This document shows positions 19,978 through 42,823 of a DNA stretch of 64,000 nucleotides, piece after piece. The notes below the pieces were generated by a model. It saw nothing but the letters and a program-made list of their open reading frames with translations, searched no databases and was not told where the DNA came from. Within the stretch, counting starts at the first letter, position 1. Each line of letters opens with the position of its first letter. The translations under genes were made by a program, and so were the position numbers. Where the stretch lies: positions 1,440,001 to 1,504,000 of the forward strand of contig OY843768.1 of NCBI GenBank assembly GCA_963693095.2, read 5' to 3'. The DNA is from Cenarchaeum sp. GTDB lineage: Archaea > Thermoproteota > Nitrososphaeria > Nitrososphaerales > Nitrosopumilaceae.

Positions 19978-20037
19978 CGATGACTCCAGAGTCAGACTCG
20001 AATGACGGAGTTGCTAATTGGCACGATAATAAATGAT

Positions 20038-21486
20038 TTATTCTGTGATGGTAAATGAACGTGCCAATATTCTTGAATATGATATATAGTTAAGCAGATG
20101 AGGAAGATCATCAAAGAGATTTTTCCATAAGGGATTAGAAGGGTCAGCTTTTTGAAGGTTGTTAAAATGGTCAGATCTACGCAATATACCTTTGGTTGCT
20201 GGATCAAGCGAGTGTGTCGAACGAAGATCATTAATTTTTACCAGGTTAATCAGCTTGACAAGATCTGAAAAGAGATCAAAACGAAGATTATGTAAAGACA
20301 TATAGCTTAGTAATGCTGGTGGAATAATGTATACAAAGTCATCATGTTTATGCAATAGTGGGTTAAGTCCAGTAATCGATACGTCAAGACCATCTTGGTC
20401 AAATAGTTTGCTCCAAGACTCATCAAAAAATTCTTTATTTGATGATAAAATTGTAAATAGTTGCTGTTGTAAATCAGTAAGAGTGATTGATTCAATAAAT
20501 TTGAATGCATTCAGATTATTTAAATGAGTGTGAACAGCTATAGAGGTAAGAACTTTGAGATCAGAGAGCGAGGGTGTGCGCATAATTGAACCAAGTTTGC
20601 CAGCAATTACTAATAACGAATTTTTATTTTTAAATGCATGACGTCGAATAATAATACAATTGACGATATCGCCGGGTTCAAGCTCAGAAGCTAGTGGTTC
20701 AACAACAAATAAACGAGTGTTTAGAGAAGTGAATTTAGGAGGTTTAGAGAGAATTTTACCTTGAATTGCGCGATATTGAAACCGATCCTGTAAAAAATCA
20801 AATTGATGAACAGATGAATCAATTTTAACGATCTTTACTAGTGTTTTAAATACATCACATGTCTCAAGAAGTTCTGTGTAGCCATGATAAATAAAATTAT
20901 GGAAAGAATCATAGTCATTATTAATATCAGCAGCAGGCAATCGCCAATAAGAGTAAGTAAAACACTGATCAACTATTTTAGAATGAGTAATGTTTGGCCG
21001 TTCAATATTAGTAGCCCAATTTCTGAGAAGAAAATTCAAACTAGAAAATTGTGGCGGGATATTACGCTCAAATTTGAATCGTTCATACACATCAGAAACA
21101 AGAACACGCTGAGCAGAATTAGGAAAATATTCATGTATGCGTTTAGTTCCATGTAGATGCATCAATGTAAAATGGTTTAGATCTTGAACATATGTGGCAA
21201 GAAAAGCAGCTGGTGCGCGTGTATCAAAATAATGTATTTTACGACTAAGCAGGTTAAAAGATTGTGGAGAGAATAATGATAACGGTAATCTCAAGTTAAG
21301 CCGTATGCACGCATTATCTTTAACACTTTCAATACGCATATGTTCAATATCAGGAACTGAGCGAGAAGTAAGTTCTGCAATTCTTTGAGAAGAAACCAGA
21401 ATTAACTGTGTTAAAAATTTAGGATATGAAGGCTCAATAAGCTTTTCTAAAATTTGGATTTCTATATTTTCGCGAGATGGCATCAA
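20038..21486 (-). CDS. Uncharacterised 482-aa protein, last gene of the DISARM-like operon
   Basis: Long ORF in AT-rich DNA; its ATG overlaps the drmC stop (TGATG at 21485-21481); no family recognised. Confidence 0.8.
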   Translation of the reverse strand: MMPSRENIEIQILEKLIEPSYPKFLTQLILVSSQRIAELTSRSVPDIEHMRIESVKDNACIRLNLRLPLSLFSPQSFNLLSRKIHYFDTRAPAAFLATYVQDLNHFTLMHLHGTKRIHEYFPNSAQRVLVSDVYERFKFERNIPPQFSSLNFLLRNWATNIERPNITHSKIVDQCFTYSYWRLPAADINNDYDSFHNFIYHGYTELLETCDVFKTLVKIVKIDSSVHQFDFLQDRFQYRAIQGKILSKPPKFTSLNTRLFVVEPLASELEPGDIVNCIIIRRHAFKNKNSLLVIAGKLGSIMRTPSLSDLKVLTSIAVHTHLNNLNAFKFIESITLTDLQQQLFTILSSNKEFFDESWSKLFDQDGLDVSITGLNPLLHKHDDFVYIIPPALLSYMSLHNLRFDLFSDLVKLINLVKINDLRSTHSLDPATKGILRRSDHFNNLQKADPSNPLWKNLFDDLPHLLNYISYSRILARSFTITE

Positions 21487-21998
21487 AGATCATCTCCTTG
21501 TTTTATAGAACGCGCAAGCACATCCAACATATTAGCAATTTTGGAAACAGAATTTCCGTTAATTTTAAGCATAATTTCATAATTATAATTCATAGCATTT
21601 TTAGATATGTTAGGAGATCCTATCAACGCAAATTTTCTATCGATTACTATAATTTTAGCGTGAAGAGAACCATATTTGTGCTTTATTTGAAAGTTAAATA
21701 GATCAAAATTTGAAAATTTTTGAAAAGCAATCAATTTTTGTCTTGAAAAGTCTCCAATGGTTGATCCTTCCAAATCATTAACAATAAATTGAACATAACA
21801 ACCAGCATTAATTTGATCTTGAATAATATCAAAAAATGTTTTCATTTCAAAATTATCTCGGCCTAAAGAAAATGCCGAGATTTGTATGCTAGTCCGGGCT
21901 TGTTTTAGTGAATCAAAAACTGTGTCTACTATATTACTTGCTTCGTATCCTACCCATAATGCGCCAGATGCAGAAATTGAAGCAATCTCACGGGTCAA
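21483..21998 (-). CDS. drmC: Phospholipase D-family nuclease (DISARM DrmC-like)
   Basis: Single HKD motif LHAKIIVID followed by GSPN and NYE; directly downstream of DUF1998 gene. Confidence 0.85.
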   Translation of the reverse strand: MTREIASISASGALWVGYEASNIVDTVFDSLKQARTSIQISAFSLGRDNFEMKTFFDIIQDQINAGCYVQFIVNDLEGSTIGDFSRQKLIAFQKFSNFDLFNFQIKHKYGSLHAKIIVIDRKFALIGSPNISKNAMNYNYEIMLKINGNSVSKIANMLDVLARSIKQGDDL

Positions 21999-23944
21999 CG
22001 CTTAAGTGACTCCAAAAGAAGGTTACGATCTAAAAACTTGTTGTAAGAATCACATGATGTTTCAGAAACAAATAAGCAAGCATGACAAGCAGCACCATTA
22101 AACCGATTGTGGGTTTTCCGTCTATCAACACAAACAGGATCATTGGAACATATACGGATGTTATGATAAACATGGGATAGAATCTCTGAAAATGACGGAG
22201 CTAGGCTAATTAGACCCCCCAAGGTTCCGTCTCCCCCGGGCTGAGCTGTGTAAAGCAGAAGGCCAGATGTGTGTCGGCCAGACTCATCCTCATGACAATA
22301 AACACGCTCAGCAATACTTGCAGATGAAAATCCCGAACTGATTGCAAGCTGGTTAATGATTTTATGAGACAGCGCATGCCACCACACAAATCTAGGATTA
22401 GTTTTTCTTTTAGCTTCTAAACTTTTTTTAGACCAAGATTCATAGGTTGTGTTCCAAGCATCAAATGAGTCGTTTGAAGTATTTAGAACAGTGAGGGGGT
22501 CAAAGTTTATGTTTTTGTCAGAAGGGTCACATACTTGTATAAATAATCCTTCACCACGCAGTTGATGGCCAACAAACCACCTAGTATCATCTTCGTCATA
22601 GTAATTATAAATCAATTTACCCTGACGGTGGATGATTGGTATATTAGCATCATCCGAATCATCAAGTTCGTGTGTAACAACCTCACGCGAATATCCCAAT
22701 TGTACGCGGGTTAAATGTAATTGACGTATTGGAGAAATTCGGAAGTGGAGATTGAAATCCTCATGAAAGAAATCTATCGAATCAGTAGGTTCAATATGTA
22801 AACCAGTGAACGTACCATGTTTTTGGGGAGGAAAACCGTTTACGGTTGCATTAAGTAAATTGTTAAATTCATCATTAATCACGTTTTCAAAGTCAAATTC
22901 TGATTTATCAGATTGTTTTTTTGTCATATCTTCTGAAATTTTTGTAAGCGCATGTTTTATTTCATCCAATGTGGAAGTTTCAATAGCAGGTATAGGAAGA
23001 TTAGCATTGTATTTTTGATTAATTCGTTTACAATGATCAAGAAATTGCGTGTGTGTAAAATTAGGAGAGTTGTTGTGAAGAAATAGATCTAATGCCAATG
23101 GGTTTTCAGAGAGTATTCCAAGCTTACCAGGTACAGGAGGAATAGAAACGGCCAACATCAAGTCCACAACACGGATATTGCTAGAGTTTTTTAGTATAAG
23201 TTTAGAAGGTTCGCCACATGTTGAGATATTGTCTCTGGGAGGGTATTCTTGCATCACGCCAGAACATTGCAAAGTACCATTATCAGATTTTGACCGAAGT
23301 TCAAAGTACGAAACAGATTTATCACAATTTGTGCGCTGAAATGAACCATTTTCATAATAACCGTAACATCGAACAGTGAAATTATTATCACTATCAGATT
23401 CGTCCCATTCAAATACATCACCTAGGCATTCAAAGTGTCCACGATGAACCTCATATTTCCAATCAATGTCATCCAAATGACCGTTGTTACACGCCCTAAC
23501 AAATCGTACCGATGAACCTCTGTTTTTGTGACGTTTTGAAAGATTAGCATTGCTAGAACAGTTTGGACAGCGGATTTCAGCATGACCAGATATGTTTTGT
23601 AACTTAGACAATACAGGAGTTCCCGGATGGGCATTGCAAACAGACCAACGAGGAAATATGAAAGATCGAAACAAATATGTATTGTCGTCAGGGGTCAGAT
23701 CAGCGTTAGATGGCATTTGAAATATTTTAATAGCTTTTTTAGCAGGAAATTTTCTTTTTAGTATATTTTCCATATTAGAATCTTTAATGCAGAATGAATT
23801 TAATTGAAAATCAGGAAAACGACGAAAGTCGTCTATTATATTCAACAAAGACGGAATCACCACATAGCCACTTGCAATCGGAATCATCGATCCACTACCA
23901 TAGGTAGTAACATATTGTGATGGTCGTAATTGAACACTAGGCAT
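21995..23944 (-). CDS. drmB: DUF1998 helicase-associated protein (DISARM DrmB-like)
   Basis: LRPSQYVTTYGSGS, RFVRACNNGHLDD, GEGLF, HALSHKII, GTLGGL, CSNDPVC, ACHACLFVSETSC...LDR; ATG 23944 overlaps drmA stop by 8 nt. Confidence 0.9.
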   Translation of the reverse strand: MPSVQLRPSQYVTTYGSGSMIPIASGYVVIPSLLNIIDDFRRFPDFQLNSFCIKDSNMENILKRKFPAKKAIKIFQMPSNADLTPDDNTYLFRSFIFPRWSVCNAHPGTPVLSKLQNISGHAEIRCPNCSSNANLSKRHKNRGSSVRFVRACNNGHLDDIDWKYEVHRGHFECLGDVFEWDESDSDNNFTVRCYGYYENGSFQRTNCDKSVSYFELRSKSDNGTLQCSGVMQEYPPRDNISTCGEPSKLILKNSSNIRVVDLMLAVSIPPVPGKLGILSENPLALDLFLHNNSPNFTHTQFLDHCKRINQKYNANLPIPAIETSTLDEIKHALTKISEDMTKKQSDKSEFDFENVINDEFNNLLNATVNGFPPQKHGTFTGLHIEPTDSIDFFHEDFNLHFRISPIRQLHLTRVQLGYSREVVTHELDDSDDANIPIIHRQGKLIYNYYDEDDTRWFVGHQLRGEGLFIQVCDPSDKNINFDPLTVLNTSNDSFDAWNTTYESWSKKSLEAKRKTNPRFVWWHALSHKIINQLAISSGFSSASIAERVYCHEDESGRHTSGLLLYTAQPGGDGTLGGLISLAPSFSEILSHVYHNIRICSNDPVCVDRRKTHNRFNGAACHACLFVSETSCDSYNKFLDRNLLLESLKR

Positions 23945-26900
23945 CTGAAACAAACCCCCATTTTTCACCCATTGTGAATGTCGGCTCAACATCACGAAGT
24001 GAGTAATGCACATTTTTGTAAGCAGAAATTTTACCAGCCATTTGATGATGTTTTGTGCCGAGCACAACATGATTTTTTAGTTTAGCTCTAGTAGATTGAT
24101 TATAAATAAATTTATCGCCATAGTCTCTAGAAATCCGATTCGCACAACTGTTCCATATACAAATAGCGTCATTAAACAGCAGAGTAAACTCGTCAGAACT
24201 AACTGGCAAATCTGAATCAGGCGACAGATTGGAAAGAAGTGTTTTTGCAGAGTCAAATATTTGAGTTAGAGAAGTGCAAAGTGCAGTTATTTCATCATTT
24301 TTGTGATGTCCAATCATATAGTTAGGATTGTTTTGCCAATCAGCAGAAACAGGTTGTTGGGCAATGTGGCCAGCATTTCGTAGTATAGCCACAATTATTG
24401 GGCCAAGACATGTCTTTAACGCTTTTTCAGAAAATGGAGAGGCACTAATAGGTTCTACAAAACGGTTTATAGCTCTATGATACCCAACAAAATTTTCATA
24501 ATGACTAAGATCACGAACTCGTGTAGCACGCAGCCAAGTAATCACAAGTCCGGGATGTTTGCGTCCAATACGACCGGTTGATTGAATGTAGCTAGATGTG
24601 GATTTTGGCTGCCCCACAACAGTCATAAGTCCAAGTCTATCAATATCAATTCCTGTACCAAAAATAGAGGTAGTGAAAAGAGCATCAATTTTTCCAGGTT
24701 TTTCTAGATCTTCCATAGCTTTAGGGAGATCTAGAGATTTGACAGAGCTAGAAAGCTCAACAGCTTTTGTTTGATCTAAGTATCTATGAGAATAGTTTAA
24801 GCTGACCATTATAGATTCAGGAATTTTGCTTGTTTGTTCTACAGAACTAAAAACTATTTTATTATTTTTGATTTGAAATTTATTTGTGATGTGTGACTTT
24901 CGATCACTAGCACCACATTGAAAAGAGGTAGTTGATGAATAGTTGTGAATAGCAACCCACACGAGCGTTCCACGAGATGATGGAATTGGGGTTTCAAGCA
25001 ACAATTCATTTGCATTTTTATGACAACGCTTGACAAATTCATCTGTTGTGTTCGAAAGTAGTTTAGACGGAGTATCATCGATCGGATTATTGTCGTACAA
25101 GGCAACAGACATTTCGCCCGATTCGTTAGAGCAATAGATGGTAATGGAGACAAGGTCAGAGTCATGGGAAAGTAGAACAGGAATAAACCTCGTTCCCGGA
25201 TCGAATTGACTGTTGTCTAATCTGTGTGAGATTGAAAAGTCATTCTTTGAGCTCAATTTTTTAACATCACGTATAATATCAGAATTGTACAAATTGCGCG
25301 CAATGGCCAATTCACGAATTGCATTGAAGTATCCCACAAGTGTCCAATATGCATCAAGATTAGCAGGCATTGCCTGGGATTTTGGGGATTTATGAAGTCG
25401 GTAAATTGAACTAAGTAATGATGCATATATTCTCACCAACCCAAGTAGCATGCTTCTTGGGGCAAGTAGTCCAATATAAAGTCGTCCGGGAGTATCACAC
25501 GAACATGAAGGATCTTCGTCAATTTTGCTAAAATAATTATCGCCGTCACGTATACCCGGAGGCGGGAACACACGTGCAGTACGTCTGTAAACCACTGCAA
25601 CCTGACGTGAAGATTCTTTGATTGTAGCCGTAGATGCAATGTATTTAATTTTAGGAGTGCCCGGAGAAGAAAGTATATCAATAGCGATTTCGTAAAGGCC
25701 AACCATGCTTCCCAATGGGCCTTCAATAAGATGAAGCTCATCCTGTATAATTAATGACGGTGGATAAAAATTGGGCACAGGATCAGATAAACTATCGTCT
25801 TTGTACGTGCCAGCACGGTGAAATCCATCAAACATGTGATAAGTGTCAACATTGCCGAATATGGATGCTGCTTCGGGTTTAAATGCCAATTGGGCAAATT
25901 TGTCAGTAGTGGCAATTATAACTGTCGGGCAACGGCCATACACTTGTGGATCGATTGTAAAGGCCGAAATAGGAGTGCTAATCGACTTATTAGGATCATT
26001 TTGTGAAACAAACGGCTTGGCTATGAGCGTTTGACCACGAGGCATAGTTTTTTCAAACCAAGGGATCTCCCACGTTAAGCAATCGGGGTTTGGGCAGTGT
26101 ATAGAAAAATCAAATCGCTTATTAGAATTATTCTCATACAAAAAGAAATAGCCCGGTCGTGATGCACGAGTGCATTGGAGCGGAACACTGTATTTTGTAA
26201 GCTTAAGTGCCCGCATTATATCATCACGCCACCATTTATCTATATTGTCAGAAGAGAGATGGTTAGTACGAAAATGTACACGTAGAGCACAATAGGTACC
26301 GTGTTCATTAGTGTGAATACGAGAAAGAGATTTTGCTGGTGAGCCATCTTTTTTGCATATAATGTGCCCATTACCACAAAATTTTGAATTGTCTATTGAA
26401 TCGAATTCTTCAGACACCATATTGGTTTCTACAATCCAGGTAATAGTAAAAATTTCACGGTTTGTAATTTCTTTGTCAGAAATTGCCAATAATGATCCAC
26501 AACAAGGACACTTTGTAATTTGGGCAGGTTCGCCGCTATTCCCTCGACTAGTTCCAGGAGGAAGCGGAGATAGGGCGCCTTCAGCATTAAGGAAAGATCC
26601 AACTTGTTCAAACCGGTTAGGAGTTATATCACCGATCCACAATCCTAACGAAAAACGGTTTTGACCCCAGAGATTTTTTCGTGAATCTCTTTCGATCAAA
26701 TCTGGATCAGTAAATTCAACATTTCGAGGCAGCCAATGCTTGACTCTCAACATATCAGAGGCGAGGATTAATCCCAACGTCCTACTAAATTGCTGAATTG
26801 TCAAAAGTCGGAGAGTGTATCGAGATATGATAGAAACACCGCCATCTGTTTGAAAGTCTTTGTACGTAACAAGTCGGCGATAGGCAAAAGTAAACGCCAT

Positions 26901-28361
26901 AAGTCCAAGATACGCCTCTGTCTTTCCACCACCGGTTGGGAACCATAGAATGTCACAAAAATCTTTATCTTGTTTATTGTCTGGAATGAGACCCGGCAAT
27001 GTTTGTAAGATAAATGCTATTTGAAATGTATGCCAAGAAAAGTGTGCGTCATTATCGTTGCTATCCCATTGGTGTTTCATATGCATAGCCTCGTTCATAA
27101 AGCAAAATGCCAATCGTGCTTTTTCGTTACACAATAATAAATCAATCCCTTTTTGGATACGATCTGCACACTGATAACATTGTTCAATATTTTCATCAAG
27201 TAAATCATTTTTGGTAGAATAAGTTTCTTGTTGATCAGATATCCATTGTTTGTATTCTGTGACAATTGGTGTGAATGTAGAAGAGATAGAATTAACATCC
27301 CACAAGTCAGCAAGGCGATCTGCATTAAATCTGTCAGAATTACCTCGAATTTCAGGTTGGCGAACAACATACATTGGTAAATATTCGGTACGTATGTCAG
27401 AATTTTGAAATTTTTGAAGAACATCATCTGGCATTATTGATGATTGTGCATCAGGCCACATCATGGAGCAAAAATCTTGATTCGCGGAATCAGAAGCAGG
27501 ATCTATATCTTTCCACATAACCCCACACAGATGTCCACGACCTTTATTGGCCTTGTTTTGATATAAATAATCATTGTTTGTTTTATCGGCAAATGGTGTT
27601 CCAAGATCTTCAACGGATGAGTCAGAGCCGCATATAACGCGAATTTGTGGTTGAAAAATCGACAATACATTGTTTTGTCTTTTGTTGGGTTTGGTTCCAG
27701 AATATGGCGATTCGTTAACAAGAAATATAGATACATGCCATTTATTATTTTCAACGTAACGTGTATAGACATAAAGCTTTGCATCATTGCTTCCAATATT
27801 ATGAATAAATGAATTTGAAGGCAACAGAGGGGTAGCGATTTTAGAAACATCGATCAGGTCAGAAACCATCAGACTAGGGTGACGTTTGTATGTTCCCGGA
27901 GCATGGACTAGCTCGTATTTGCCCCACGTGCAACATATCTGAATTAGTGGCGGGGCACCTGCAACGACAAATGATAGACCCATTGAGTATGCACCCTGCA
28001 TTAGGTTAAGGTCAGAATCAACACTAATTTTATAGTCTGTTTCATCTGATTCAAAGTCGGAATCTCCATGATGTAAATTGTCGGGAAAATTTGCCTTTTC
28101 GTATGGATCGGGAGGGATGTTAAAATCAGGTTTGTCAGAAGAACGAAGACGGGGGTTAAGAATTCCCATGGTGTATTGAACTGATGGATTTTCGATTACC
28201 TCATCAGGTCCACATCTAGGTCCAAGCATATCTTCAAAAAGTGATTTGACCATATAGGTACGAGCTAAACCTGAGAATAGACTCTCTGTAGATGTAAAAT
28301 TAGAATTATTAGTTTCAGAATTTGAATGGTTGTCTGTATGCTCAGTGGTAGGTTGTGTCAA
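23937..28361 (-). CDS. drmA: SF2 helicase (DISARM DrmA-like), 1474 aa
   Basis: SMGLSF, FQPQI, FQIAFIL, WFPTGGGKTEAYLG, RYTLRLLTIQQFSR, TTDKFA, IQDELH, ASTAT, YFNAIREL, GIDIDRLGLM, YIQSTGRIGR, RDLSHYENF, SLRDVE. Confidence 0.92.
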   Translation of the reverse strand: MTQPTTEHTDNHSNSETNNSNFTSTESLFSGLARTYMVKSLFEDMLGPRCGPDEVIENPSVQYTMGILNPRLRSSDKPDFNIPPDPYEKANFPDNLHHGDSDFESDETDYKISVDSDLNLMQGAYSMGLSFVVAGAPPLIQICCTWGKYELVHAPGTYKRHPSLMVSDLIDVSKIATPLLPSNSFIHNIGSNDAKLYVYTRYVENNKWHVSIFLVNESPYSGTKPNKRQNNVLSIFQPQIRVICGSDSSVEDLGTPFADKTNNDYLYQNKANKGRGHLCGVMWKDIDPASDSANQDFCSMMWPDAQSSIMPDDVLQKFQNSDIRTEYLPMYVVRQPEIRGNSDRFNADRLADLWDVNSISSTFTPIVTEYKQWISDQQETYSTKNDLLDENIEQCYQCADRIQKGIDLLLCNEKARLAFCFMNEAMHMKHQWDSNDNDAHFSWHTFQIAFILQTLPGLIPDNKQDKDFCDILWFPTGGGKTEAYLGLMAFTFAYRRLVTYKDFQTDGGVSIISRYTLRLLTIQQFSRTLGLILASDMLRVKHWLPRNVEFTDPDLIERDSRKNLWGQNRFSLGLWIGDITPNRFEQVGSFLNAEGALSPLPPGTSRGNSGEPAQITKCPCCGSLLAISDKEITNREIFTITWIVETNMVSEEFDSIDNSKFCGNGHIICKKDGSPAKSLSRIHTNEHGTYCALRVHFRTNHLSSDNIDKWWRDDIMRALKLTKYSVPLQCTRASRPGYFFLYENNSNKRFDFSIHCPNPDCLTWEIPWFEKTMPRGQTLIAKPFVSQNDPNKSISTPISAFTIDPQVYGRCPTVIIATTDKFAQLAFKPEAASIFGNVDTYHMFDGFHRAGTYKDDSLSDPVPNFYPPSLIIQDELHLIEGPLGSMVGLYEIAIDILSSPGTPKIKYIASTATIKESSRQVAVVYRRTARVFPPPGIRDGDNYFSKIDEDPSCSCDTPGRLYIGLLAPRSMLLGLVRIYASLLSSIYRLHKSPKSQAMPANLDAYWTLVGYFNAIRELAIARNLYNSDIIRDVKKLSSKNDFSISHRLDNSQFDPGTRFIPVLLSHDSDLVSITIYCSNESGEMSVALYDNNPIDDTPSKLLSNTTDEFVKRCHKNANELLLETPIPSSRGTLVWVAIHNYSSTTSFQCGASDRKSHITNKFQIKNNKIVFSSVEQTSKIPESIMVSLNYSHRYLDQTKAVELSSSVKSLDLPKAMEDLEKPGKIDALFTTSIFGTGIDIDRLGLMTVVGQPKSTSSYIQSTGRIGRKHPGLVITWLRATRVRDLSHYENFVGYHRAINRFVEPISASPFSEKALKTCLGPIIVAILRNAGHIAQQPVSADWQNNPNYMIGHHKNDEITALCTSLTQIFDSAKTLLSNLSPDSDLPVSSDEFTLLFNDAICIWNSCANRISRDYGDKFIYNQSTRAKLKNHVVLGTKHHQMAGKISAYKNVHYSLRDVEPTFTMGEKWGFVSDA

Positions 28362-28413
28362 TGTAGAACGTTACCTCTGGACAAAATGAACTTAATCAAC
28401 ATGGACAATTTGT

Positions 28414-29436
28414 TTACCTCGTAGACTGTGCGCGTAGGGTTTTTCTGCGCGGGTGGCGAACAATCATTCGATGGGCAGTTATATGAGGCACCATATGTTT
28501 GGCTATTTCAGAGACTATTGGAGGAACCACCGCATTGCCTAATTGTCGGTATGCGTGAGAATCGGAGACGTGTAGCTTGAAGTTTTTGGGAAAACCCATG
28601 AGTAGAGCGCATTCTTTTGGTGTAAGTCGGCGCGGGTTTTTCCGTGATCCCTGGTAGACGAGGATTTCAGCCCCATCCTTGTAGTAGCGGGCACTCAGAG
28701 TTCTTGATGCACCGTCAAGGTCAGCCAAGCCATATCCAAACCCATTTCCTTTTTTTCGGTTTCTTTCTGCATGACGTTTCAGCGCAGACCACACGCCGTC
28801 AGTTAGCGTGTATTTTGCATCCGGTGAGCTGTCCAAGATTTTTTTGAGTTTGGGGCCTGATCCGGAAAATTGCGGAAATGCAAAGTTTGTGGGCTCGGCA
28901 AACCCAACCAAGAAAAGGCGCTCCCTGTGCTGGGGAACTGCGGATCGGGCATCAATTACCTCATGGCGTATATCATAACCGAGTTTTTTCAGCTCTTTTT
29001 CGATGATCATGAGCGTTCGACCCCCATCATGTGAACGGAGATTTTTGACATTCTCCAAGAGAAATGCCCGTGGACGTTTGGCTCGGAGTATACGGACGAT
29101 CTCAAAGAACAGGTCTCCCTGTGACGAGTCAGCAAACCCGTCAGGCCTGTTCATACTTCGCTTTTTGGACACGCCGGCCAGAGAGAACGGCTGGCAGGGA
29201 AAGCCCGCCACGAGCACATCATGATCGGGTATTTCAGAGGGCCGGATTTGGCGAATGTCCCCAGATGGAACATCCCCAAAATTAGACTCATAGGTGTTGC
29301 GGGAGTGCTCGTTCAGCTCGGAGGAAAAGACACACCGCCCACCGGCCTTTTCGAATGCCATACGCATTCCCCCAATTCCGGCAAATAGATCGATGAACGT
29401 GAATTTAGATCGCTGTCTGGTAGGCAATTCTGTCAA
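28414..29436 (-). CDS. drmMII: C5-cytosine DNA methyltransferase, Dcm/M.EcoRII-like (DISARM DrmMII-like; CCWGG predicted)
   Basis: FIDLFAGIGG, GFPCQPFSLAGVSKK, ENVKNL, QHRER, KYTLT, GNGFGYG, RTLSARYYKDGAEIL, QLGNAV. Confidence 0.9.
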   Translation of the reverse strand: MTELPTRQRSKFTFIDLFAGIGGMRMAFEKAGGRCVFSSELNEHSRNTYESNFGDVPSGDIRQIRPSEIPDHDVLVAGFPCQPFSLAGVSKKRSMNRPDGFADSSQGDLFFEIVRILRAKRPRAFLLENVKNLRSHDGGRTLMIIEKELKKLGYDIRHEVIDARSAVPQHRERLFLVGFAEPTNFAFPQFSGSGPKLKKILDSSPDAKYTLTDGVWSALKRHAERNRKKGNGFGYGLADLDGASRTLSARYYKDGAEILVYQGSRKNPRRLTPKECALLMGFPKNFKLHVSDSHAYRQLGNAVVPPIVSEIAKHMVPHITAHRMIVRHPRRKTLRAQSTR

Positions 29437-29457
29437 GGCGCCGTACGGTATACTACG

Positions 29458-29463
29458 TTATAA
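29458..29463 (-). promoter_or_regulatory. Putative TATA box of the defence operon
   Basis: TTATAA 22-27 nt upstream of the MTase TTG start, typical leaderless archaeal spacing. Confidence 0.5.
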
Positions 29464-29480
29464 GGATAATGGACAACTGC

Positions 29481-29647
29481 ACAGGCGTGCGAGAACAGGC
29501 GTGCGAGAACAGGCGTGCGAGAACAGGCGTGCGAGAACAGGCGTGCGAGAACAGGCGTGCGAGAACAGGCGTGCGAGAACAGGCGTGCGAGAACAGGCGT
29601 GCGAGAACAGGCGTGCGAGAACAGGCGTGCGAGAACAGGCGTGCGAG
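29481..29647. repeat. Perfect tandem repeat (ACAGGCGTGCGAGA) x ~12
   Basis: Read directly: 14-bp unit over 167 bp, last copy lacks its final A; no spacers. Confidence 0.97.
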
Positions 29648-29692: not shown

Positions 29693-32600
29693 CTAGCTTT
29701 CCGCATCACGCGTGGCCGGCGTGTAGACGACGGTCGGCGTACTAGCCGTGCCTCCAAAGTCACCGTGCGTGAGTGCAAACCCCATGTCACCCGAGAGGCG
29801 CAGTGTGCGCACAAACTCGCCTGACGCGTCATCTGCAACCCCCACGGCCGCCTCGCCGTTGACAATCCACTCAGCTGCCACAATGTCCCCGATCACAGGC
29901 TCGTCGAGGGTCACCGTTGTGACAGTCGCCGATGTCGTGTGCGCCGATGCGATCGTCGGAGGCCTAGTGTCGATCTCTATTGCTCCAGAGGCACCCTGGA
30001 CCGCAGTCGCCGTCACACCCGTCGAGCCGTCAATCGCCGTGACCTCAAAGGTGAGCAGGCCAGAAACTGCGTCGCCTGCCACCGTGTGCACGTGCGTCCA
30101 GGTCTGCCGATAGTCCCCCGGCGCGTCGACCATGGTGAGCGCAGGACCGCCGAGGATGGAGACTGTTGGGTCTGCGCTGATGCCGGCCGGCTCGTTGAGC
30201 GTTGCAGTGATGACAATGTCATGGCCGATGCCGGCCGTGCGCGCGCCCAGGCCGCTCCGCTGCACCTTTGGCGTCTGCACGCTGTCGTCATCGTCCTCCA
30301 CCACAATGGCCGAGACGGCAACGGTGAGCGCAGTCGTATCGGTGCCGGCCGGAATTGTTCCAGAGACTGCAGTCGACATGCGCGGCAGGTATGCCTGGCA
30401 CACCGGATCTATTGTGTCGCTGTGCAGGCATGTGCGCTCTGTCTCAAAGTTTGGCGTGGCGACCGGAAGGTATCGCACTGTCGGAGCAACGTCTGCCGGC
30501 TGGGCCGAGGTGTCCGGAAGTGTGAGGGACATGCTTATGCCGTCGGCAGAGAGTTTATGGGACGCAAACTCTAGGTGGCGCGCGACGTCACCGGCCGCAC
30601 CAGGAAACGTCGCAGGCGTCAGGTCTATTATCCAGCTCGATGGCGTGGACTCGGCAAATCCTAGCAGCCGTTCTGTGAACGTGACTGTCATCGTTGTCGG
30701 TGACGTGAGCGCCGCCGTGAATGCCGGAACGAGATTCGTGCCAAACCGGAACGGAATATTCACAAGCTGCGGGTTGTCAGCCGGTGTCAGGTCACCGGCA
30801 ATATGCCTCTTTAGCGTCGTGGGGATGGTGACTGTGTGCGACGGAGCCGATGGTCTTGTCGCATCGAGCTGAATCGAGACGTACGATCCGTCGGCCTCGG
30901 CGGCGCTGACGGTTCCGTCAAACGCAGCTCCTATGGCGGCGTCGGACGGCAGCGCACCTCGTTCAGGCATCACGCGCAGCGTCCCCCACGGACCGTCCGT
31001 GCGCGAGGCCGGATGCGGCGGATCGGCAAGCGTCCGGCGATCAGGGGCGTTGCCCGGAAAGTAGACTAGCACGCGCGAGGCGTCTGGTGAGGCATCAGAC
31101 GGGATGATGCGCAGTGACACGGACTCTTGCGAGCCGGCAAACGCAGAGCCGTCTGAGCCCATTATCGTCGGCGGCAGGCGGACAGAGTATGCGACGTCGC
31201 CCCTGGCCTCGTACGTGCTGCCACGCTCATCGACGAGCGAGACGACTAGCGTTCGCGGGCCGTCAGGCGCGACCCTGTTGGATATGGGAAGCGGCGGGAT
31301 CGGCAGGCATTGGGGCTGGAGGCTGCCCTGTGCAGAGCACGCTGGATCCTCGGGCATGTCCGGCGGCGCCTCGCCCCGCACGACGTCAAGCGAAGAGGGC
31401 ACCGAGGAGTGGTCGATATCGGCGCCAAAGAGGACGCGAATCTCGCCATATGCGGCAAACTCGGCACTCACCACGCGAGGCGGGCCGGCGACTGCCACAG
31501 TCACCGGCGAGGCCAGCGCGTTTGCGGGCTGCGCGGTGTCCACTATGGAGAGCCGTCGTGTCGTGTCAGCCGGCGCGTACATTATCGACACCCCCTCGCC
31601 GAGCGTCGCGTGATCGGTGGCAGTCGCACCTAGCGTGACTGTGCGTCGCGCAAGGTCCACCATAACTGATGACGGCACGATTCCCTCGGGGCTCGACCCG
31701 GAGACGAGGCGCCAGTCATCTGCAATGGGAGCCGACTTTGTCGGCGCGAGCATGACGGCTTCGCTGAACGTGACCACATAGGATGGCGCAGACTCGTCAA
31801 ACGGGTCAGCACGGTGCGCCGTAAACTCTGGGGGCGCGCCGTCTGTGGCCAGCGTGTCAAAGACACGAAGCGGCAGGTGGCCGTCTCGTGACAGGCTGTC
31901 AGAGACATCAGAGTATATCACGCGCGGCTGCTGGCCGGTCGAGTCTAGCGCGCTGTGCGTTATGGTCATCGTCGTGACCGGCGAGCCCTGTGGTATCGTG
32001 TGCGCAGAGCCCGCAGTGACCATCGACGTCCCGACATATATGGCATCAATTGCACCATCGACAATGCTGTCATCGTCATGGTCCATGGACCAGTCACCAA
32101 TCTCGATCGTTCCGGACACTGCAGGAGTGAACGTGACGACTGTCATAGTCGCCGTCGCAGTCCGTGCGCTAAACGGGATCGTGTACGTGGCCTGGTGCGT
32201 GAGCGCCTCTCCCAGCGTGTTGGGCGTTGGGGACGCCGCGTCGCGCACGCCAGTCGAGAACGTCAGCGTCGGCGAGCCCTCCCTGCGCTGCGGCACGACG
32301 TATGCCACAAGCTCGCGACCCTCGGACTTTACGCCGGTGATCATGTACGGCGCCGAGATGGCGACCCAGTCCAGTGACGCGCTGCCCAGCGGCTCGCTGA
32401 ACGTGGCGGTGACCTGGAGGCCATACGCGTCAAACCCGTGGGACACCAGGGTAGGCGGCGCGCCATCACGGGCCATCACGGGCAGAGCGCCAGTCGAGCC
32501 CACGCGCAGCGTGCCGTCCTGCCCGCCGCTCAGGCCGCCAGAGGCAGGGGCGGTGTACGAAACCTCGGGCGTCGAGGCAGTCGAGCCAAGCTCGCCATGG

Positions 32601-33577
32601 AATATCATGAGCGTCGAGCGCGCCGACTGGCCGGGGATGGCAAGGGATTCAGAGCCTGCCGTGCCGACTCCCGTGACGGCAATGTCTGGCGCCGACGAGC
32701 CGCGCTCGCCAATGCCCCATTCGCCAGGCTCGGTGGTTCCCGAGACCGGCCTGTCAAACGTGATTACAGTCGATGTCCTCGTCGACGTCTCTGCCGTGAA
32801 GGCGATCGACGCGGTGTATGACGCCGAGACGGTCTGCGCGGCCGGCGCGTTGCCGGCCCTGTCCCTGATCTTGGATGGCAGCCTTATCGTGTGCTCTACG
32901 CCCTGGGCTGCATCAGAGGCTAGCGTGAGCGTGATCCTTGACTGACCCAGCTGGACGACGTGCGGTGCCGAGCCGTCAAGCTCCACGTCATCTGTGCCCA
33001 CAGTGACGCCGTACTCGTAGCGATAGACGCGCTGGGAGAACTGCAGGGCCTCATCAAAGGCGAGCACGATCGTGTCAGCCGCCGTGAACTGTGCAGTTGC
33101 GGTGGGTCGCGTGACGTCGATGGTTGGCAGGAGGAGGCCGACGTTCTCTGGAAGGTTCTGCGCAGGCGTGATGGTCATCCCCTGCTCGCCGGGCAGCGTT
33201 ATCGTGAACGTGAACGCCGAGCCTGCAGTTGGCATCAGACTCCCGGCTACGACATAGTCATGGTACCATGTCGAGTCGTTGCCATCACGATCGTACATCG
33301 TCGCATCCGTGACGCCGGTGATCTCGCCTCCGGCGATCGTTATCGTCGGTGGCGAGTCGATTCCCGCATCAAGCCTAAGATACGTGCGGATTGTGTCGCC
33401 AATGCCAGCGTATGACTTGTAGTCGCCGATCTTTTCGAGGCCCACTCGCGGCGGAACTGGATCAAGAACCGAGAACGTCAGCGATATCGTACTCGGCTCG
33501 GCGTGCGCACCACCATGCGCAAGGGTGGCGAGGAGCGCGGCGGCCATGACGCACACAACTGTCATGCTGCCGTTCAT
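29693..33577 (-). CDS. Large secreted/surface protein with repeated Ig-like beta-sandwich modules, possibly C-terminally truncated
   Basis: Signal peptide ending AHGGAHA; ~5 copies of FTA-x-T..VTF...V-G....W module; 2 copies of AGIG-x-I...PT-I-GG...TW-H-V-G; Thr/Ser/Pro-rich; start approximate. Confidence 0.8.
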   Translation of the reverse strand: MNGSMTVVCVMAAALLATLAHGGAHAEPSTISLTFSVLDPVPPRVGLEKIGDYKSYAGIGDTIRTYLRLDAGIDSPPTITIAGGEITGVTDATMYDRDGNDSTWYHDYVVAGSLMPTAGSAFTFTITLPGEQGMTITPAQNLPENVGLLLPTIDVTRPTATAQFTAADTIVLAFDEALQFSQRVYRYEYGVTVGTDDVELDGSAPHVVQLGQSRITLTLASDAAQGVEHTIRLPSKIRDRAGNAPAAQTVSASYTASIAFTAETSTRTSTVITFDRPVSGTTEPGEWGIGERGSSAPDIAVTGVGTAGSESLAIPGQSARSTLMIFHGELGSTASTPEVSYTAPASGGLSGGQDGTLRVGSTGALPVMARDGAPPTLVSHGFDAYGLQVTATFSEPLGSASLDWVAISAPYMITGVKSEGRELVAYVVPQRREGSPTLTFSTGVRDAASPTPNTLGEALTHQATYTIPFSARTATATMTVVTFTPAVSGTIEIGDWSMDHDDDSIVDGAIDAIYVGTSMVTAGSAHTIPQGSPVTTMTITHSALDSTGQQPRVIYSDVSDSLSRDGHLPLRVFDTLATDGAPPEFTAHRADPFDESAPSYVVTFSEAVMLAPTKSAPIADDWRLVSGSSPEGIVPSSVMVDLARRTVTLGATATDHATLGEGVSIMYAPADTTRRLSIVDTAQPANALASPVTVAVAGPPRVVSAEFAAYGEIRVLFGADIDHSSVPSSLDVVRGEAPPDMPEDPACSAQGSLQPQCLPIPPLPISNRVAPDGPRTLVVSLVDERGSTYEARGDVAYSVRLPPTIMGSDGSAFAGSQESVSLRIIPSDASPDASRVLVYFPGNAPDRRTLADPPHPASRTDGPWGTLRVMPERGALPSDAAIGAAFDGTVSAAEADGSYVSIQLDATRPSAPSHTVTIPTTLKRHIAGDLTPADNPQLVNIPFRFGTNLVPAFTAALTSPTTMTVTFTERLLGFAESTPSSWIIDLTPATFPGAAGDVARHLEFASHKLSADGISMSLTLPDTSAQPADVAPTVRYLPVATPNFETERTCLHSDTIDPVCQAYLPRMSTAVSGTIPAGTDTTALTVAVSAIVVEDDDDSVQTPKVQRSGLGARTAGIGHDIVITATLNEPAGISADPTVSILGGPALTMVDAPGDYRQTWTHVHTVAGDAVSGLLTFEVTAIDGSTGVTATAVQGASGAIEIDTRPPTIASAHTTSATVTTVTLDEPVIGDIVAAEWIVNGEAAVGVADDASGEFVRTLRLSGDMGFALTHGDFGGTASTPTVVYTPATRDAES

Positions 33578-33641
33578 CGTGACGCAATAGTCCTTTCGCA
33601 CTTTTTAGTGTAATTGCGCCGTGCGCACGTCGACGTCACGG

Positions 33642-36410
33642 CTATTTCCCGCTGTCGGCCCATCGCCCCAATGCGTCTCGCCGTTGCCCAATTGCGCGAA
33701 CCACGAGTAGCGGCGTGGCGACGGCGATGACGGCGATGAGTGGGGCGGCGAGCTCGGCATAGGACACCTCGGTGGATGACGACGGCGCATCGCGCAGGAC
33801 AGTCGATGCGAGCGCAGATATCTCGACGACCCCTATGCGTGCGGCCCCCGGCGCGGCATACCAGATGTTTCCCTCCGAGTCGACTGCGGTAAACTGGGCC
33901 TGCGCTCTCGGCGTCGGGAGCGCGACGCTGACGAGCTCGCCAGAGGCGTCGTTGTGAAGCCCAAGCGCATCGACTGTGTGCTGCGCAAACCACGCGTTGC
34001 GGTGCCTGTCAAAGGAGACCGAGTTGGGCAGCGCGCCTGCGTCAGTGGCCATGACACGCGTAAATGTTCCAAGGAGCGGATCAAGGCGCGCAACGCCCCC
34101 TCCCTCGGTGTGCTCAGAAACCCAGAGCCCGCCGTGCGGCCCGAACGTGAGCGTCTCGGCGGTTCGCAGGGGCGGGTCGGGGGCAAACTCGACGATCTCG
34201 CCGCTTGCCATGTCAATGCGGCCGACCTTGCCTCCGGTCAGCTCGGCAAACCACATCCCGCCGCGCGGTCCCTCGGCGAGGCCAAACGGCCGCGACTCGG
34301 GCGTCGGCGAAGCATGCGCGATGAACTCGCGCGTTGCCGGATCGTGCTCGAGGACCGCGTTCCAGTTGGGCACGCTCACCCAGACAGTGCCGTCGCGCGC
34401 AGCATGTATCCACGTCGGCGTGGCTCGCAAGCCGTCAGGCCCGAGGCCGTCGGGAATCGCAGTTGTGCCTATCGCGCGCGTCTGCGCGTCGATCGACCCA
34501 ATGAGGGCTGACCGGCTGTCGGCAAACCAGACCGTCCGGTCATCGCCCACGCTAACGATCAGCGATCCGGTTCCCTCAAACTCGTGCGCGGCAAACTCGC
34601 CGGTCTGGCGATCCAGGCTCCAGACGCGCGGCATCGACGGGTCGCTGATCCAGACCGTCTGGCCGTCGTGTGCGAGATGGAGCGGAACTGCGCCGTCTGG
34701 CATTACATGCTCGGTTATCTCTATACCGAGCTCGGAGGCCAGGGGTCGCGCAAAGGCGCCGATGCGAACCGACTCGTTTGCCGCACCAGACCGGATCGCC
34801 TCGACGTCAATGTCCCACGCGCCCCAGAACCCAAGGGTGAGCTCGCCGGTGTGCACGCCGCCGTCGTCCTCGACCTTGACCTCGATGGGTGCGATCGCGC
34901 GCTGAGGGCTAGAGACCTTTACGCGAACCTCCTCGAGGTCATCGAGTGGCTCGCCGTCGGTGCCCGTGACGCCCACGCTGATCGTGTTGGGGCCGGCGGC
35001 GAGCGGCCAGAGCGAGACGCCAAAGGCCGCGCGCGCCGAGAACTCGGTCACCTCAAGGCCAACGGGCGCCGGCGGGGCATAGTCTGTGGCCTCGCCTCCC
35101 GGAAGTGTCGTGTTGGTGAGGAGCGCCACGGCTGCCAGGAGGGCCACGCCGAGGGTCGCCTCTAGGCGCAGGGAGCGCGTGAGGCGCACGACGGCGCGCC
35201 GGGCCCCGCGCGCGATGACTGACGAGTTGTATGCGCCGATTGCCACCATGGTCGCGGCGATGGCGATCTTTGCGGCGAGGATCGCCCCGTATGTGGAGCC
35301 CACGATGGCCATGACGCTGTCCTCAAGGAGCCACATCAGCAGCGGTCCGGTTATGGCCGCCACGCCGACGCACGTGACAAATATTGCCGAGAGCGTCGGT
35401 ATGGCCACCAGTGCGGCCTCGTCGGCCCGCTCGCCGAGGCGCCTGAGGGCAGGCATGACGGCGAGGAGGAGGTATGCGACGCCCCCAATCCAGACACCGG
35501 CGATCACATTGTGCGCATAGTCTAGCACAGCAGCTCCCTCACTGCTCGCCGAGCCGTGCCCGACCATAGTCATCGTGGCCGCAAGGGCCATGCCGAGTGC
35601 CGCAAAGGCCGCAATCCACGGCCTGCTCGGGCCCCCTCGCCGCTCGGCGACAAACCATACGGCAAGCAGTGCCACAGTTATCGCCATCCTTGCGGCAATC
35701 GTGCCGCCAAACGTCGTGCCCAGCGCGTCGATGACTGAGGCCTCGAGGCGAAACGACTGCGCGGCGAGCATGAAAACGTTGGAGGCCAGGACCATGATCG
35801 CACCGGCGCCGACTAGCATCATAAAGCGCGAGTGATGAACCGACTCGGCCTCGCGCGCAATGCCCAGCGCACGCCATGTCGTGGCGGTGATGAGCATCGC
35901 GACGGCAGCCCCGATAATGACGCTCTGCCCGATGAGTCCGGGCAGGCGCGCTGCGGCCTCTGGAAGAAAGACCTGTGCGGTGGGCGCGACGGACTCGGCG
36001 GCGGCCGCATCGATCGTGGCGCCGCCGACTGCAAAGATGAACGCGCCGCCGACGAGGTGTCCGTCAACTCGCGACAGGACGCTGCTAGCAACGGTGTAAA
36101 CACCGTCATCTAGCGGCGACGTCGTGACCCTCAGGGACACGTCGCCCTCGTGGTATGCCGTGTCCCCATTGTCAACCCTGCTGCCGGCCGAGTCGTACAC
36201 CTTGAGCGAGCTAAAGTCGAGCTCGACTCCCTCAGAGTACCACACCGTCACGTGATCGGTGCCCAGCGGGGCACTAGAGAGGCGCTGCGGCATCGTCTCC
36301 TCGATGAACGGGTGTGCCCATGCCGACGGGGACATGACGGTGAGGATGGCGAGTGCGGCCAGCGCAATGACTGCCCTGTGAACCATGCGTCGGCACGCGA
36401 GATCAGGCAA
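33642..36410 (-). CDS. CopC/CopD copper-binding fusion protein with Vgb-like beta-propeller and C-terminal TM
   Basis: Signal peptide then AH-P (His1 CopC), VLSRVDGH; CopD TM region (GH, HNVIAGVWIGG, STYGAILAAK, EATLG); repeated G-x-W-F/V propeller blades. Confidence 0.87.
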   Translation of the reverse strand: MPDLACRRMVHRAVIALAALAILTVMSPSAWAHPFIEETMPQRLSSAPLGTDHVTVWYSEGVELDFSSLKVYDSAGSRVDNGDTAYHEGDVSLRVTTSPLDDGVYTVASSVLSRVDGHLVGGAFIFAVGGATIDAAAAESVAPTAQVFLPEAAARLPGLIGQSVIIGAAVAMLITATTWRALGIAREAESVHHSRFMMLVGAGAIMVLASNVFMLAAQSFRLEASVIDALGTTFGGTIAARMAITVALLAVWFVAERRGGPSRPWIAAFAALGMALAATMTMVGHGSASSEGAAVLDYAHNVIAGVWIGGVAYLLLAVMPALRRLGERADEAALVAIPTLSAIFVTCVGVAAITGPLLMWLLEDSVMAIVGSTYGAILAAKIAIAATMVAIGAYNSSVIARGARRAVVRLTRSLRLEATLGVALLAAVALLTNTTLPGGEATDYAPPAPVGLEVTEFSARAAFGVSLWPLAAGPNTISVGVTGTDGEPLDDLEEVRVKVSSPQRAIAPIEVKVEDDGGVHTGELTLGFWGAWDIDVEAIRSGAANESVRIGAFARPLASELGIEITEHVMPDGAVPLHLAHDGQTVWISDPSMPRVWSLDRQTGEFAAHEFEGTGSLIVSVGDDRTVWFADSRSALIGSIDAQTRAIGTTAIPDGLGPDGLRATPTWIHAARDGTVWVSVPNWNAVLEHDPATREFIAHASPTPESRPFGLAEGPRGGMWFAELTGGKVGRIDMASGEIVEFAPDPPLRTAETLTFGPHGGLWVSEHTEGGGVARLDPLLGTFTRVMATDAGALPNSVSFDRHRNAWFAQHTVDALGLHNDASGELVSVALPTPRAQAQFTAVDSEGNIWYAAPGAARIGVVEISALASTVLRDAPSSSTEVSYAELAAPLIAVIAVATPLLVVRAIGQRRDALGRWADSGK

Positions 36411-41290: not shown

Positions 41291-41626
41291 ATGGAGGGCA
41301 TTGTGCTCAACATTGGCGGGAGCGAGTGGGTTCTCATCGCGTTCGTCGCGCTCATCGTTCTCCTTGGAACGAACAGGCTGCCCGGCGTGGCGCGCCGGCT
41401 CGGAAAGCTAGCCGGCGAGTATGACAAGGCCAAAACGGAGATCCGCGGCCACGCCGAGGGCATGGGCGGCATGAGGCCCACGGCGGCAATGGGCACAGAG
41501 GCCGAAAAGCTTGACGCAATGGCCGCAACACTTGGCATAAAGCGCAACGGGCGGACTGATGAGGAGATGCGCAGGCTCATCTCCGAGGGCGTCGGCGGCA
41601 AGGCCGGTGGCAAGGCCGACGCCTAG
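41291..41626 (+). CDS. tatA: Twin-arginine translocase TatA/TatB family subunit
   Basis: IGGSEWVLIAFVALIVLLG..RLP..AR.LGK...EY.KA. Confidence 0.85.
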   Translation: MEGIVLNIGGSEWVLIAFVALIVLLGTNRLPGVARRLGKLAGEYDKAKTEIRGHAEGMGGMRPTAAMGTEAEKLDAMAATLGIKRNGRTDEEMRRLISEGVGGKAGGKADA

Positions 41627-42399: not shown

Positions 42400-42479
42400 G
42401 CGTGGCGTGCGGGCGGCGTGCGCTATATCAACTAGGCGCGGACATCGTGCCTTTCCGCCTTTTCTTTCCGGGATCGCGC

Positions 42480-42668: not shown

Positions 42669-42823
42669 GGATCGCGTGTGGTGTCATTTCGGATAAAAAT
42701 GCAGAATTGACCAAAATCGGCTCTGGGCAAATTAAAGCTGACTTGATTGGTGCGGACGTTCGCGTCGACTGTGGCCGCTGGCAGCACGACACACCAATAT
42801 GCCCACGTGCGCAGGGCCGTCGC

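Follow-up and report, generated by a model that had tools for sequence, protein, structure and literature searches.

To which kind of DISARM does an archaeal operon belong in which a gene of no described family, rather than drmE, accompanies the drmABC core, and what might that gene contribute? The question is raised by a 64,000-nucleotide stretch of the genome of Cenarchaeum sp. (assembly GCA_963693095.2, contig OY843768.1, positions 1,440,001 to 1,504,000; hereafter the window, in which the coordinates of the island and its surroundings are given). Five co-oriented open reading frames (ORFs), all on the minus strand between positions 20038 and 29436, fill its AT-rich segment in the 5′-to-3′ order drmMII, drmA, drmB, drmC, and a fifth gene that we call ORPH, as read from the ORF list and the sequence itself. 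The data make it likely that this is an intact, horizontally acquired class 2-type DISARM operon from an archaeal sub-lineage marked by ORPH, which is translationally coupled to drmC and would act as an accessory subunit. The means by which DISARM recognizes foreign DNA and eliminates it are not yet understood.

The island is set apart by its composition. The GC content of the window, ~60 to 65%, falls to 31 to 41% from ~20.0 to 29.4 kb in the composition profile; the flanks have about 0.60 to 0.65 GC, and a neighboring host gene has a GC of 0.64 and a third-codon-position GC (GC3) of 0.73. Within the island, ORPH (0.338), drmC (0.308), drmB (0.376), and drmA (0.392) all show GC3 values of 0.20 to 0.29. 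By composition, the segment (20000..29440, no strand assigned) is foreign, horizontally acquired DNA, and the co-oriented five-gene operon in AT-rich foreign DNA that was originally predicted at 20038..29436 is as described, both in its ORFs and in its composition. The implied uniformity applies to drmA, drmB, drmC, and ORPH only; drmMII is compositionally intermediate (GC 0.505, GC3 0.50), and the AT-rich island is therefore not uniform. The host is archaeal, with RadA (Rad51 plus HHH_5), GatD/GatE, and other housekeeping genes encoded in the window, and by Pfam the genes flanking the island are pyrI/pyrB on one side and an Ig-like repeat protein gene on the other. No integrase, flanking direct repeat or att-like pair, or adjacent tRNA was found at the island borders. 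Nor was any synteny of the site with related genomes found, so that the insertion site is not shared. Another Cenarchaeum locus (L023 in the set described below) is likewise AT-rich, with 30 to 35% GC against 53 to 58% in its flank; such a contrast between island and genome would fit an origin by transfer from relatives of low GC.

The genes are tightly packed. Direct reading of the junctions gave a gap of 52 nt between drmMII and drmA, after which the last four genes overlap, as had been claimed, by 8 nt (drmA/drmB, common string ATGCCTAG), 4 nt (drmB/drmC, TTGA), and 1 nt (the A of TGATG, shared by the drmC stop and the ORPH ATG). It is hard to believe that such an island is an inactive relic of the transfer event. 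The distance in GC3 between these genes (0.20 to 0.29) and the host (0.73) could hamper expression, but each of the five genes retains an open, full-length frame with no frameshifts seen, the motifs described next are intact, and the compact overlapping arrangement has been kept.

Four of the five products are recognizable DISARM proteins, and the methyltransferase-helicase-DUF1998-phospholipase D (PLD) identities first assigned to them were borne out by PADLOC, NCBIfam, and Pfam. The drmMII gene (28414..29436, minus strand) encodes a C5 cytosine DNA methyltransferase of 340 residues (PADLOC DrmMII PDLC02653, E = 3.2e-150; Pfam DNA_methylase, 7.8e-85; NCBIfam dcm TIGR00675, 306.7 bits against a cutoff of 100.65) that keeps all the C5-methyltransferase motifs, i.e., FAGIGG, PCQPFS, ENV, QHRER (QxRxR), and GNAV. 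The 1,474-residue product of drmA (23937..28361, minus strand) is a long-form DISARM superfamily 2 (SF2) helicase (PADLOC DrmA PDLC02571, E = 0; NCBIfam DISARM_DrmAL, 1074.8 bits against a cutoff of 999; Pfam Helicase_C), with its Walker A motif GGGKT at 26919-26933 and a DELH (DExH) box at 25731-25742. Its DUF1998/MZB zinc-binding partner, encoded by drmB (21995..23944, minus strand), has 649 residues if translation begins at the ATG responsible for the 8-nt overlap, whereas the ORF at its longest reaches 24070; it was identified by PADLOC (DrmB PDLC02583, 5.7e-133), NCBIfam (DrmB_fam, 376.4 bits against a cutoff of 240), and Pfam (MZB, 1.1e-8), and its CxxC pairs are present, with the cysteines invariant across an 18-sequence alignment. 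The drmC gene (21483..21998, minus strand) encodes a short, single-HKD nuclease of the phospholipase D family, 171 residues in length (PADLOC DrmC PDLC02614, 4.8e-27; Pfam PLDc_2, 1.7e-15; match to NucT 6ehi_A at 1.1e-7), in which HAKIIVID (HxK(x)4D) and GSPN (GSxN) are intact and invariant across 10 aligned sequences. Its score against NCBIfam DISARM_DrmC_I is below the cutoff (56 versus 133 bits) because that model was built for class-1 DrmC; the match covers only profile positions 99-226 of 236, which indicates that class-1 DrmC has an N-terminal part that is missing here. The window thus contains the membership of a DISARM core: DrmA, a separate adjoining DrmB, DrmC after drmB, and an associated DNA methyltransferase. 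A recent survey (PMC12458937) describes DISARM as the branch that consistently encodes its helicase and its DUF1998 module in separate genes. Two of the related loci described below, from Nitrosopumilaceae/Cenarchaeaceae metagenome-assembled genomes (MAGs), have DrmA and DrmB fused into products of 2,216 (L022, 5432-12082) and 2,155 (L023, 5591-12058) residues, followed by drmC and ORPH.

DrmA and DrmB are also homologous to the solved proteins of the class 1 DISARM of Serratia sp. SCBI (7S9V/7S9W; PMC9142583), with matches at 3.1e-110 to 7s9v_A and 1.7e-41 to 7s9v_B, respectively. An acidic low-complexity loop of the window DrmA (~residues 72-122; 27996..28148, minus strand) faces residues ~174-233 of 7s9v_A in the HMMER alignment, and the trigger loop of the Serratia protein is given as residues 176-232 in the legend to Fig. 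1 of that paper; from this alignment we infer that the two loops may be functionally equivalent. The window differs from the Serratia system in having no DrmD SNF2 helicase, no DrmMI N6-adenine methyltransferase, and a DrmC without the N-terminal region.

ORPH (20038..21486, minus strand; 482 residues from a TTG, 481 from the ATG at 21483) belongs to an uncharacterized family and is the proposed accessory subunit. The original prediction had spoken of a 482-residue unknown after drmC, and unknown it is to the family databases, with no match in Pfam, NCBIfam, PHROGs, or PADLOC (E ≤ 10). Scanning all 34 aligned members of the family with Pfam yielded no consistent hit; the best match of the ORPH profile to PDB sequences (E = 0.45) was noise, as was the best score of the homolog P0002 against the ESM Atlas (0.75) by that search's own calibration, and tblastn against plasmid and phage collections gave no match. 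A word-based search, in turn, found seven close homologs of 479 to 488 residues with 41 to 45% identity, and exhaustive HMMER searching of 1.84 billion cluster representatives returned 46 family members at E ≤ 1e-3, of which 31 were at ≤1e-10 and 10 at ≤1e-30, self included. Fragments aside, nearly all are 440 to 560 residues long, and there are no fusions. In the closest pair of loci (L037/L046), the ratio of nonsynonymous to synonymous substitution rates (dN/dS) is 0.054 for ORPH, compared with 0.063 for drmB, 0.061 for drmMII, and a range of 0.061 to 0.122 over drmB, drmC, and drmMII. ORPH is, then, a real gene family under constraint.

The linkage of ORPH to DISARM was examined in 75 loci retrieved by DrmB alignment, each with flanking sequence of up to 10 kb per side; DrmB was used as the seed because an ORPH-seeded scan of the genome collection had returned nothing. 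The ORPH hidden Markov model (HMM) matched eight of these loci, all of them archaeal, and jackhmmer found the same eight and no more. Six are from Nitrososphaerota MAGs, assigned to Nitrosopumilus (L001, L022, and L037), Cenarchaeum (L023), Nitrosomirales (L018), and Nitrososphaerota (L046). The original prediction placed the system in an ammonia-oxidizing lineage, a putative assignment of the window's host to which these six loci lend indirect support. The remaining two come from Thorarchaeota (L031) and Methanomethylicaceae (L073), and the ORPH subtype is therefore not confined to ammonia oxidizers. In all eight, ORPH lies directly after drmC on the same strand and starts within a few nucleotides of the drmC stop, and in L001 the five-gene order is identical to that of the window, whose own protein has a length within the ~450 to 500 residues usual for the family, is detectable by the ORPH profile, and is encoded directly after drmC. 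Where drmC was detected with at least 1.5 kb of downstream sequence, it was followed directly by ORPH in 8 of 17 archaeal loci and in none of 34 bacterial ones. The original prediction had allowed that the orphan might never occur with drmABC elsewhere; it does so in these eight further loci, in a pattern that upholds the idea of a variant DISARM subtype, as does the tree evidence given below. For three of the seven close ORPH homologs, the longest contig is equal in length to that of a close DrmB homolog (10536, 10727, and 11047), which suggests that both come from the same contigs. Several close homologs of the two proteins are found on metagenomic contigs of ~10.5 to 11 kb, barely longer than the operon; the island seems to assemble alone repeatedly, perhaps owing to its composition, to repeats at its borders, or to a location on a small mobile element.

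ORPH also shares its history with DrmB. On a DrmB tree of 71 rows, four partial DrmB rows having been left out, the distribution of the nine ORPH-bearing rows takes 2 changes, compared with a mean of 8.7 after shuffling, and none of 500 shuffles gave a number as low. In a 34-row subset, the tree with all nine ORPH rows together lay 10.6 log-likelihood units above the free tree (p-AU 0.835), so that a single ORPH-bearing DrmB lineage is not rejected. The ORPH tree shows the same groups as the DrmB tree (the window with L001, L022 with L023, these four together, and L037 with L046); the two trees are congruent, and the proteins have co-diverged. Their pace differs, with ORPH diverging faster than the other subunits. 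Between the window and L001, identity is 32% for ORPH and 46 to 55% for the other four proteins, and the means over the 36 locus pairs are 27% for ORPH, 39% for DrmA, 34% for DrmB, and 34% for DrmC. ORPH had the lowest identity in 26 of these pairs, and a further 6 gave no BLAST alignment of ORPH at all.

These observations bear on whether ORPH could be an independent gene, i.e., a one-gene defense system or a mobile-element passenger, that merely adjoins DISARM in a defense island. Defense genes do cluster, L023 and L037 have further PADLOC candidates in the vicinity (PDC-S41 and an IetA-like ATPase), and the low mean identity of ORPH relative to the Drm proteins would be in keeping with a separate existence. 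We nevertheless regard this explanation as quite unlikely, given that ORPH occupies the same position and strand, with a start that touches or overlaps the stop codon of drmC, in nine of nine loci from three archaeal phyla, that its tree follows that of DrmB, and that the five genes fill the AT-rich segment of the window with nothing else in it.

The gene content is closest to that of class 2 DISARM, for which the reference is the Bacillus paralicheniformis operon drmE-drmA-drmB-drmC-drmMII (Ofir et al. 2018, as relayed in later papers). Shared features are the C5 methyltransferase DrmMII, a long DrmA, a separate DrmB (DUF1998), and a short PLD-type DrmC, all encoded by co-oriented, tightly packed genes. 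The window differs in that no DrmE was detected and a ~480-residue protein of an undescribed family follows drmC instead, in the methyltransferase gene being at the 5′ end of the operon, in the archaeal host, and in a clade-specific insertion of ~150 residues in DrmA. This insertion (~residues 1041-1190; 24792..25241, minus strand) lies just before Helicase_C and, in a MAFFT alignment of 13 sequences, is found only in the window, L001, L022, and L023 and is absent from the 9 others; it has no Pfam match.

In one preprint (10.1101/2021.12.28.474362), class 2 is defined as drmABC with drmMII "and, on occasion" drmE, and the window, with DrmMII and drmABC, falls within this loose definition. The PADLOC rule for type II, as given in the Fig. 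1 legend of PMC9252829, calls for DrmA, DrmB, DrmC, and DrmE together with DrmMII; none of the five proteins matched a DrmE model, in a scan whose models had no authentic-DrmE positive control, and under this strict rule the window system is not class 2. Of the class 1 markers, neither the DrmD SNF2 helicase nor DrmMI is among the five genes by PADLOC or, in a scan with Pfam only, among the flanking genes. The claim that DrmE and class I drmD/drmMI are missing therefore stands for these models and genes, while the accompanying statement that class II comprises drmE was too strict in light of the "on occasion" of the preprint and of the many DrmE-less loci seen here. Taken together, the comparisons identify the window system as a putative DISARM of class 2 type whose archaeal sub-lineage carries a new, conserved accessory gene, and as distinct from ordinary DrmE-type class II. 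Its novelty is incremental, not categorical. Archaeal DISARM II systems with DrmE, called by PADLOC/DefenseFinder, are already in print (PMC11529989; PMC11705971), so that "archaeal" alone is not new, and a survey acknowledges "many uncharacterized DISARM-like" classes (PMC12458937, Fig. 1 legend). Full-text searches of the main texts in the literature collection used found no description of this fifth gene and none of DISARM in ammonia-oxidizing archaea.

Could ORPH nonetheless be a strongly diverged or truncated DrmE, which would turn the system into ordinary class II? DrmE too is of unknown function and poorly covered by family models. In a Lactiplantibacillus plasmid DISARM, moreover, an 801-residue gene product encoded between the C5 methyltransferase gene and drmA, i.e., in the DrmE position, matched no PADLOC or NCBIfam model, which indicates that the DrmE models may be narrow; the plasmid collection holds only three near-identical copies of this protein, all hypothetical. 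PADLOC likewise recognized no DrmE among 56 distinct neighboring proteins (53 of the 98 candidates of 400 to 1,300 residues near the cores, plus 3 plasmid proteins), nor did NCBIfam among 14. Against the idea, the match to a DrmE HMM that could have made the orphan an ordinary class II component did not appear, ORPH matching no PADLOC family at E ≤ 10 (with no authentic DrmE as a comparator), and the same tools do call DrmE in archaea in PMC11529989 and PMC11705971. ORPH is also ~480 residues long throughout the family, versus the ~800 quoted for DrmE in the original prediction, and lies after drmC, not before drmA. Profile-profile comparison by hhalign gave probabilities of 0.35 with the 801-residue plasmid protein, 0.2 with a ~770-residue archaeal family encoded before drmA (see below), and <1 with all other accessory proteins, and hmmsearch --max for ORPH relatives among 394 neighboring ORFs reached a best E of 0.069. 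On this evidence a disguised DrmE is very unlikely.

As to what ORPH might do, seven positions are invariant in the 34-sequence alignment (Y98, N103, W180, P183, K213, T214, and P375), and no Asp, Glu, or His is among them. The family is basic (median pI, 8.9; range, 6.6 to 9.5), and no hydrophobic segment was found in it. Because there is no invariant acidic residue or histidine, the family is basic, and translation is coupled to that of drmC, ORPH is probably a non-catalytic partner of DrmC and/or DrmAB. The converse arrangement, with DrmC as an auxiliary and ORPH, a novel nuclease or toxin, as the true effector, could appeal to the missing N-terminal part of DrmC. It appears unlikely, as ORPH has no invariant Asp, Glu, or His residue and resembles no family of nucleases or toxins in Pfam, PADLOC, PHROGs, or PDB sequences, and as the HKD motif of DrmC, invariant in 10 of 10 aligned sequences, speaks for an active DrmC.

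With ORPH as an accessory subunit, a defense activity and a division of labor among the five proteins can be inferred by analogy. DrmMII would methylate host cytosines and thereby mark self DNA, and DrmA and DrmB would form an ATP-dependent helicase complex that loads on unmethylated invading DNA and is probably kept inactive by the acidic loop at the trigger-loop position. PLD-type nuclease activity would be provided by DrmC. ORPH, as a non-catalytic and probably nucleic-acid- or protein-binding subunit, might act with DrmC and/or DrmAB in target sensing, effector control, licensing, or scaffolding, filling the slot held by DrmE or DrmD in other DISARM classes.

Several points weigh against the reading of the island as an operon with ORPH as its dedicated subunit. 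The ORPH-seeded scan of the genome collection, made with an 8-sequence alignment, found no relative; given that ORPH is present in loci which DrmB retrieved from that very collection, the scan is judged insensitive. Loci retrieved by DrmB show ORPH within DISARM, not its absence outside DISARM. A divergent alignment without invariant acidic residues does not rule out catalysis by ORPH. Many related loci have no ORPH, DrmE, or DrmD alike, from which it follows that a fifth gene is not generally required. Lastly, the operon is a mosaic rather than a single fixed unit: the methyltransferase gene is upstream in the window, L001, and L018 and downstream in L031, L037, and L046, and L023 has one methyltransferase-like gene on each side of the core. 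It is this varying position among the ORPH loci, combined with the differing composition of drmMII, that points to module shuffling, and the methylation module probably has a history separate from that of the rest of the island.

A bolder version of the accessory-subunit reading, which we hold to be possible but doubtful, is that ORPH defines a third, archaeal DISARM class, in which this protein, co-translated with the PLD nuclease, would be an essential subunit. It could be the still-missing component that reads non-self DNA, or else a factor that licenses cleavage by DrmC upon activation of DrmAB. Were this so, the faster divergence of ORPH (27% versus 34 to 39%) would reflect an arms race with the counter-defense of archaeal viruses, and the gene would offer a handle both on how class 2-type DISARM chooses what to destroy and on virus defense in ammonia-oxidizing and other uncultured archaea. 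Virus-host biology in these archaeal groups is hard to study experimentally. The island also documents the movement of a defense module between archaea of low and of high GC, lineages of Nitrosopumilus, Cenarchaeum, and Nitrosomirales among them. According to earlier work, DrmC is dispensable in DISARM (PMC9142583; 10.1101/2021.12.28.474362), and the roles of the less-conserved components DrmD and DrmE remain to be studied (PMC9142583). ORPH, strictly linked to drmC and co-diverging with DrmB, is a further, independent entry point to the mechanism.

Across the DrmB-anchored loci, DISARM is a modular system with alternative add-ons, of which ORPH (8 loci, all archaeal) is one. A second is the ~770-residue family of six archaeal loci, Nitrososphaerota included (L041, L049, L051, L061, L062, and L065), that share the drmABC core with the window. 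Its gene is unrelated to ORPH and lies on the opposite side of the core, directly before drmA, and the two families never occur together (6 loci versus 8, with no overlap). The proteins have 734 to 976 residues, most of them ~770; none is matched by PADLOC or NCBIfam, their homologs bear no informative name, and the family profile gave weak winged-helix matches to PDB sequences (E = 0.012 to 0.95). The family may represent an archaeal DrmE-like accessory gene.

Among further add-ons, a GHKL-type ATPase of ~730 residues with a PbeA-like helicase was found in 6 to 8 bacterial loci. Bacterial DISARM-like loci encode a protein of 631 to 740 residues before drmA (L060, L068, L069, L071, and L074 and, in part, L072 and L073, with 581 residues in L073). 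NCBIfam scans of three of these proteins (L060, L068, and L074) showed a histidine-kinase-like (GHKL) ATPase C terminus in each and, in L060 and L074, not L068, a BbrUII/HgiDII-like N terminus; loci of this type also carry, on the opposite strand after drmC, a gene for a ~590-residue helicase resembling PbeA and type IV restriction enzymes. DrmD with a TmtA-like methyltransferase occurs in seven loci, six of them cyanobacterial and one (L009) from Acetobacteraceae. DrmE-less DISARM-like loci from Chloroflexota and Cyanobacteriota have the same DrmB/DrmA subfamily and short DrmC as the window and consist of drmMII, drmA, drmB, and drmC, with an HhH-GPD glycosylase gene in some; they differ from the window in lacking ORPH (the 0 of 34 evaluable bacterial loci given above) and, in some cases, in having other accessory genes, either those for the GHKL-type ATPase and PbeA-like helicase or those for DrmD and the TmtA-like methyltransferase.

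In 18 of the 75 loci, HhH-GPD base-excision glycosylases of 211 to 259 residues are encoded beside drmMII or the core; the two members scanned with Pfam, which scored 1e-8 to 2e-16, are among a family that includes those of L031 (13663-14397) and L018 (3966-4649). By analogy, they plausibly repair T:G mismatches and so offset the deamination of 5-methylcytosine, a role for which Vsr, encoded in two bacterial plasmid loci (L079 and L080), offers an analogue. The window island has no HhH-GPD glycosylase gene. Two Bacillus plasmids (L077, 10626-15085, and L079, 3608-11550) carry a DrmA-like helicase gene, a DUF1998 gene, and a conserved pair of hypothetical genes (~327 and ~508 residues), which follows the DrmAB-like pair in one plasmid and precedes it in the other. 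This set is another uncharacterized DrmAB-associated module, and its hypothetical proteins gave an hhalign probability of <1 with ORPH.

Upstream of the operon, a TATA-box-like TTATAA (29458..29463, minus strand), ~24 nt before the drmMII start, is a candidate archaeal promoter, its function being predicted from sequence. Directly upstream of it lies a perfect 14-bp tandem repeat, ACAGGCGTGCGAGA, present in 11.9 copies (29481..29647, no strand; Tandem Repeats Finder, 100% matches, score of 334). The unit has 12 matches against 0.06 expected and occurs nowhere else in the window. The repeat, which shares the GC-rich composition of the host, separates the TATA-like box of drmMII from the 3′ end of a gene for a 1,302-residue surface protein and stands at the GC-rich edge of the island; none comparable was found in the eight related ORPH loci. 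It might modulate the promoter or be a mere mark of the island border, and it would also disrupt short-read assemblies.

The adjoining 1,302-residue protein (29693-33601) has Ig-like (Big_5) repeats and a signal-like N terminus, and a 922-residue fusion of CopC, CopD, and a Vgb-lyase-like beta-propeller is encoded nearby (33642-36410). Both are host surface or copper-handling genes outside the DISARM system. Farther along, in DNA of host-like GC, a divergent pair (41623-42825, minus strand, and 42662-45325, plus strand) encodes an N4/N6 DNA methyltransferase and a helicase. The 887-residue helicase, with DEAD/Helicase_C domains and a C-terminal MZB (DUF1998) and with BrxHI as its best PADLOC match (2e-49), is an unsplit YprA/MrfA-type relative of DrmA plus DrmB; the pair may be a second defense module or may combine an orphan methylase with a helicase for repair.

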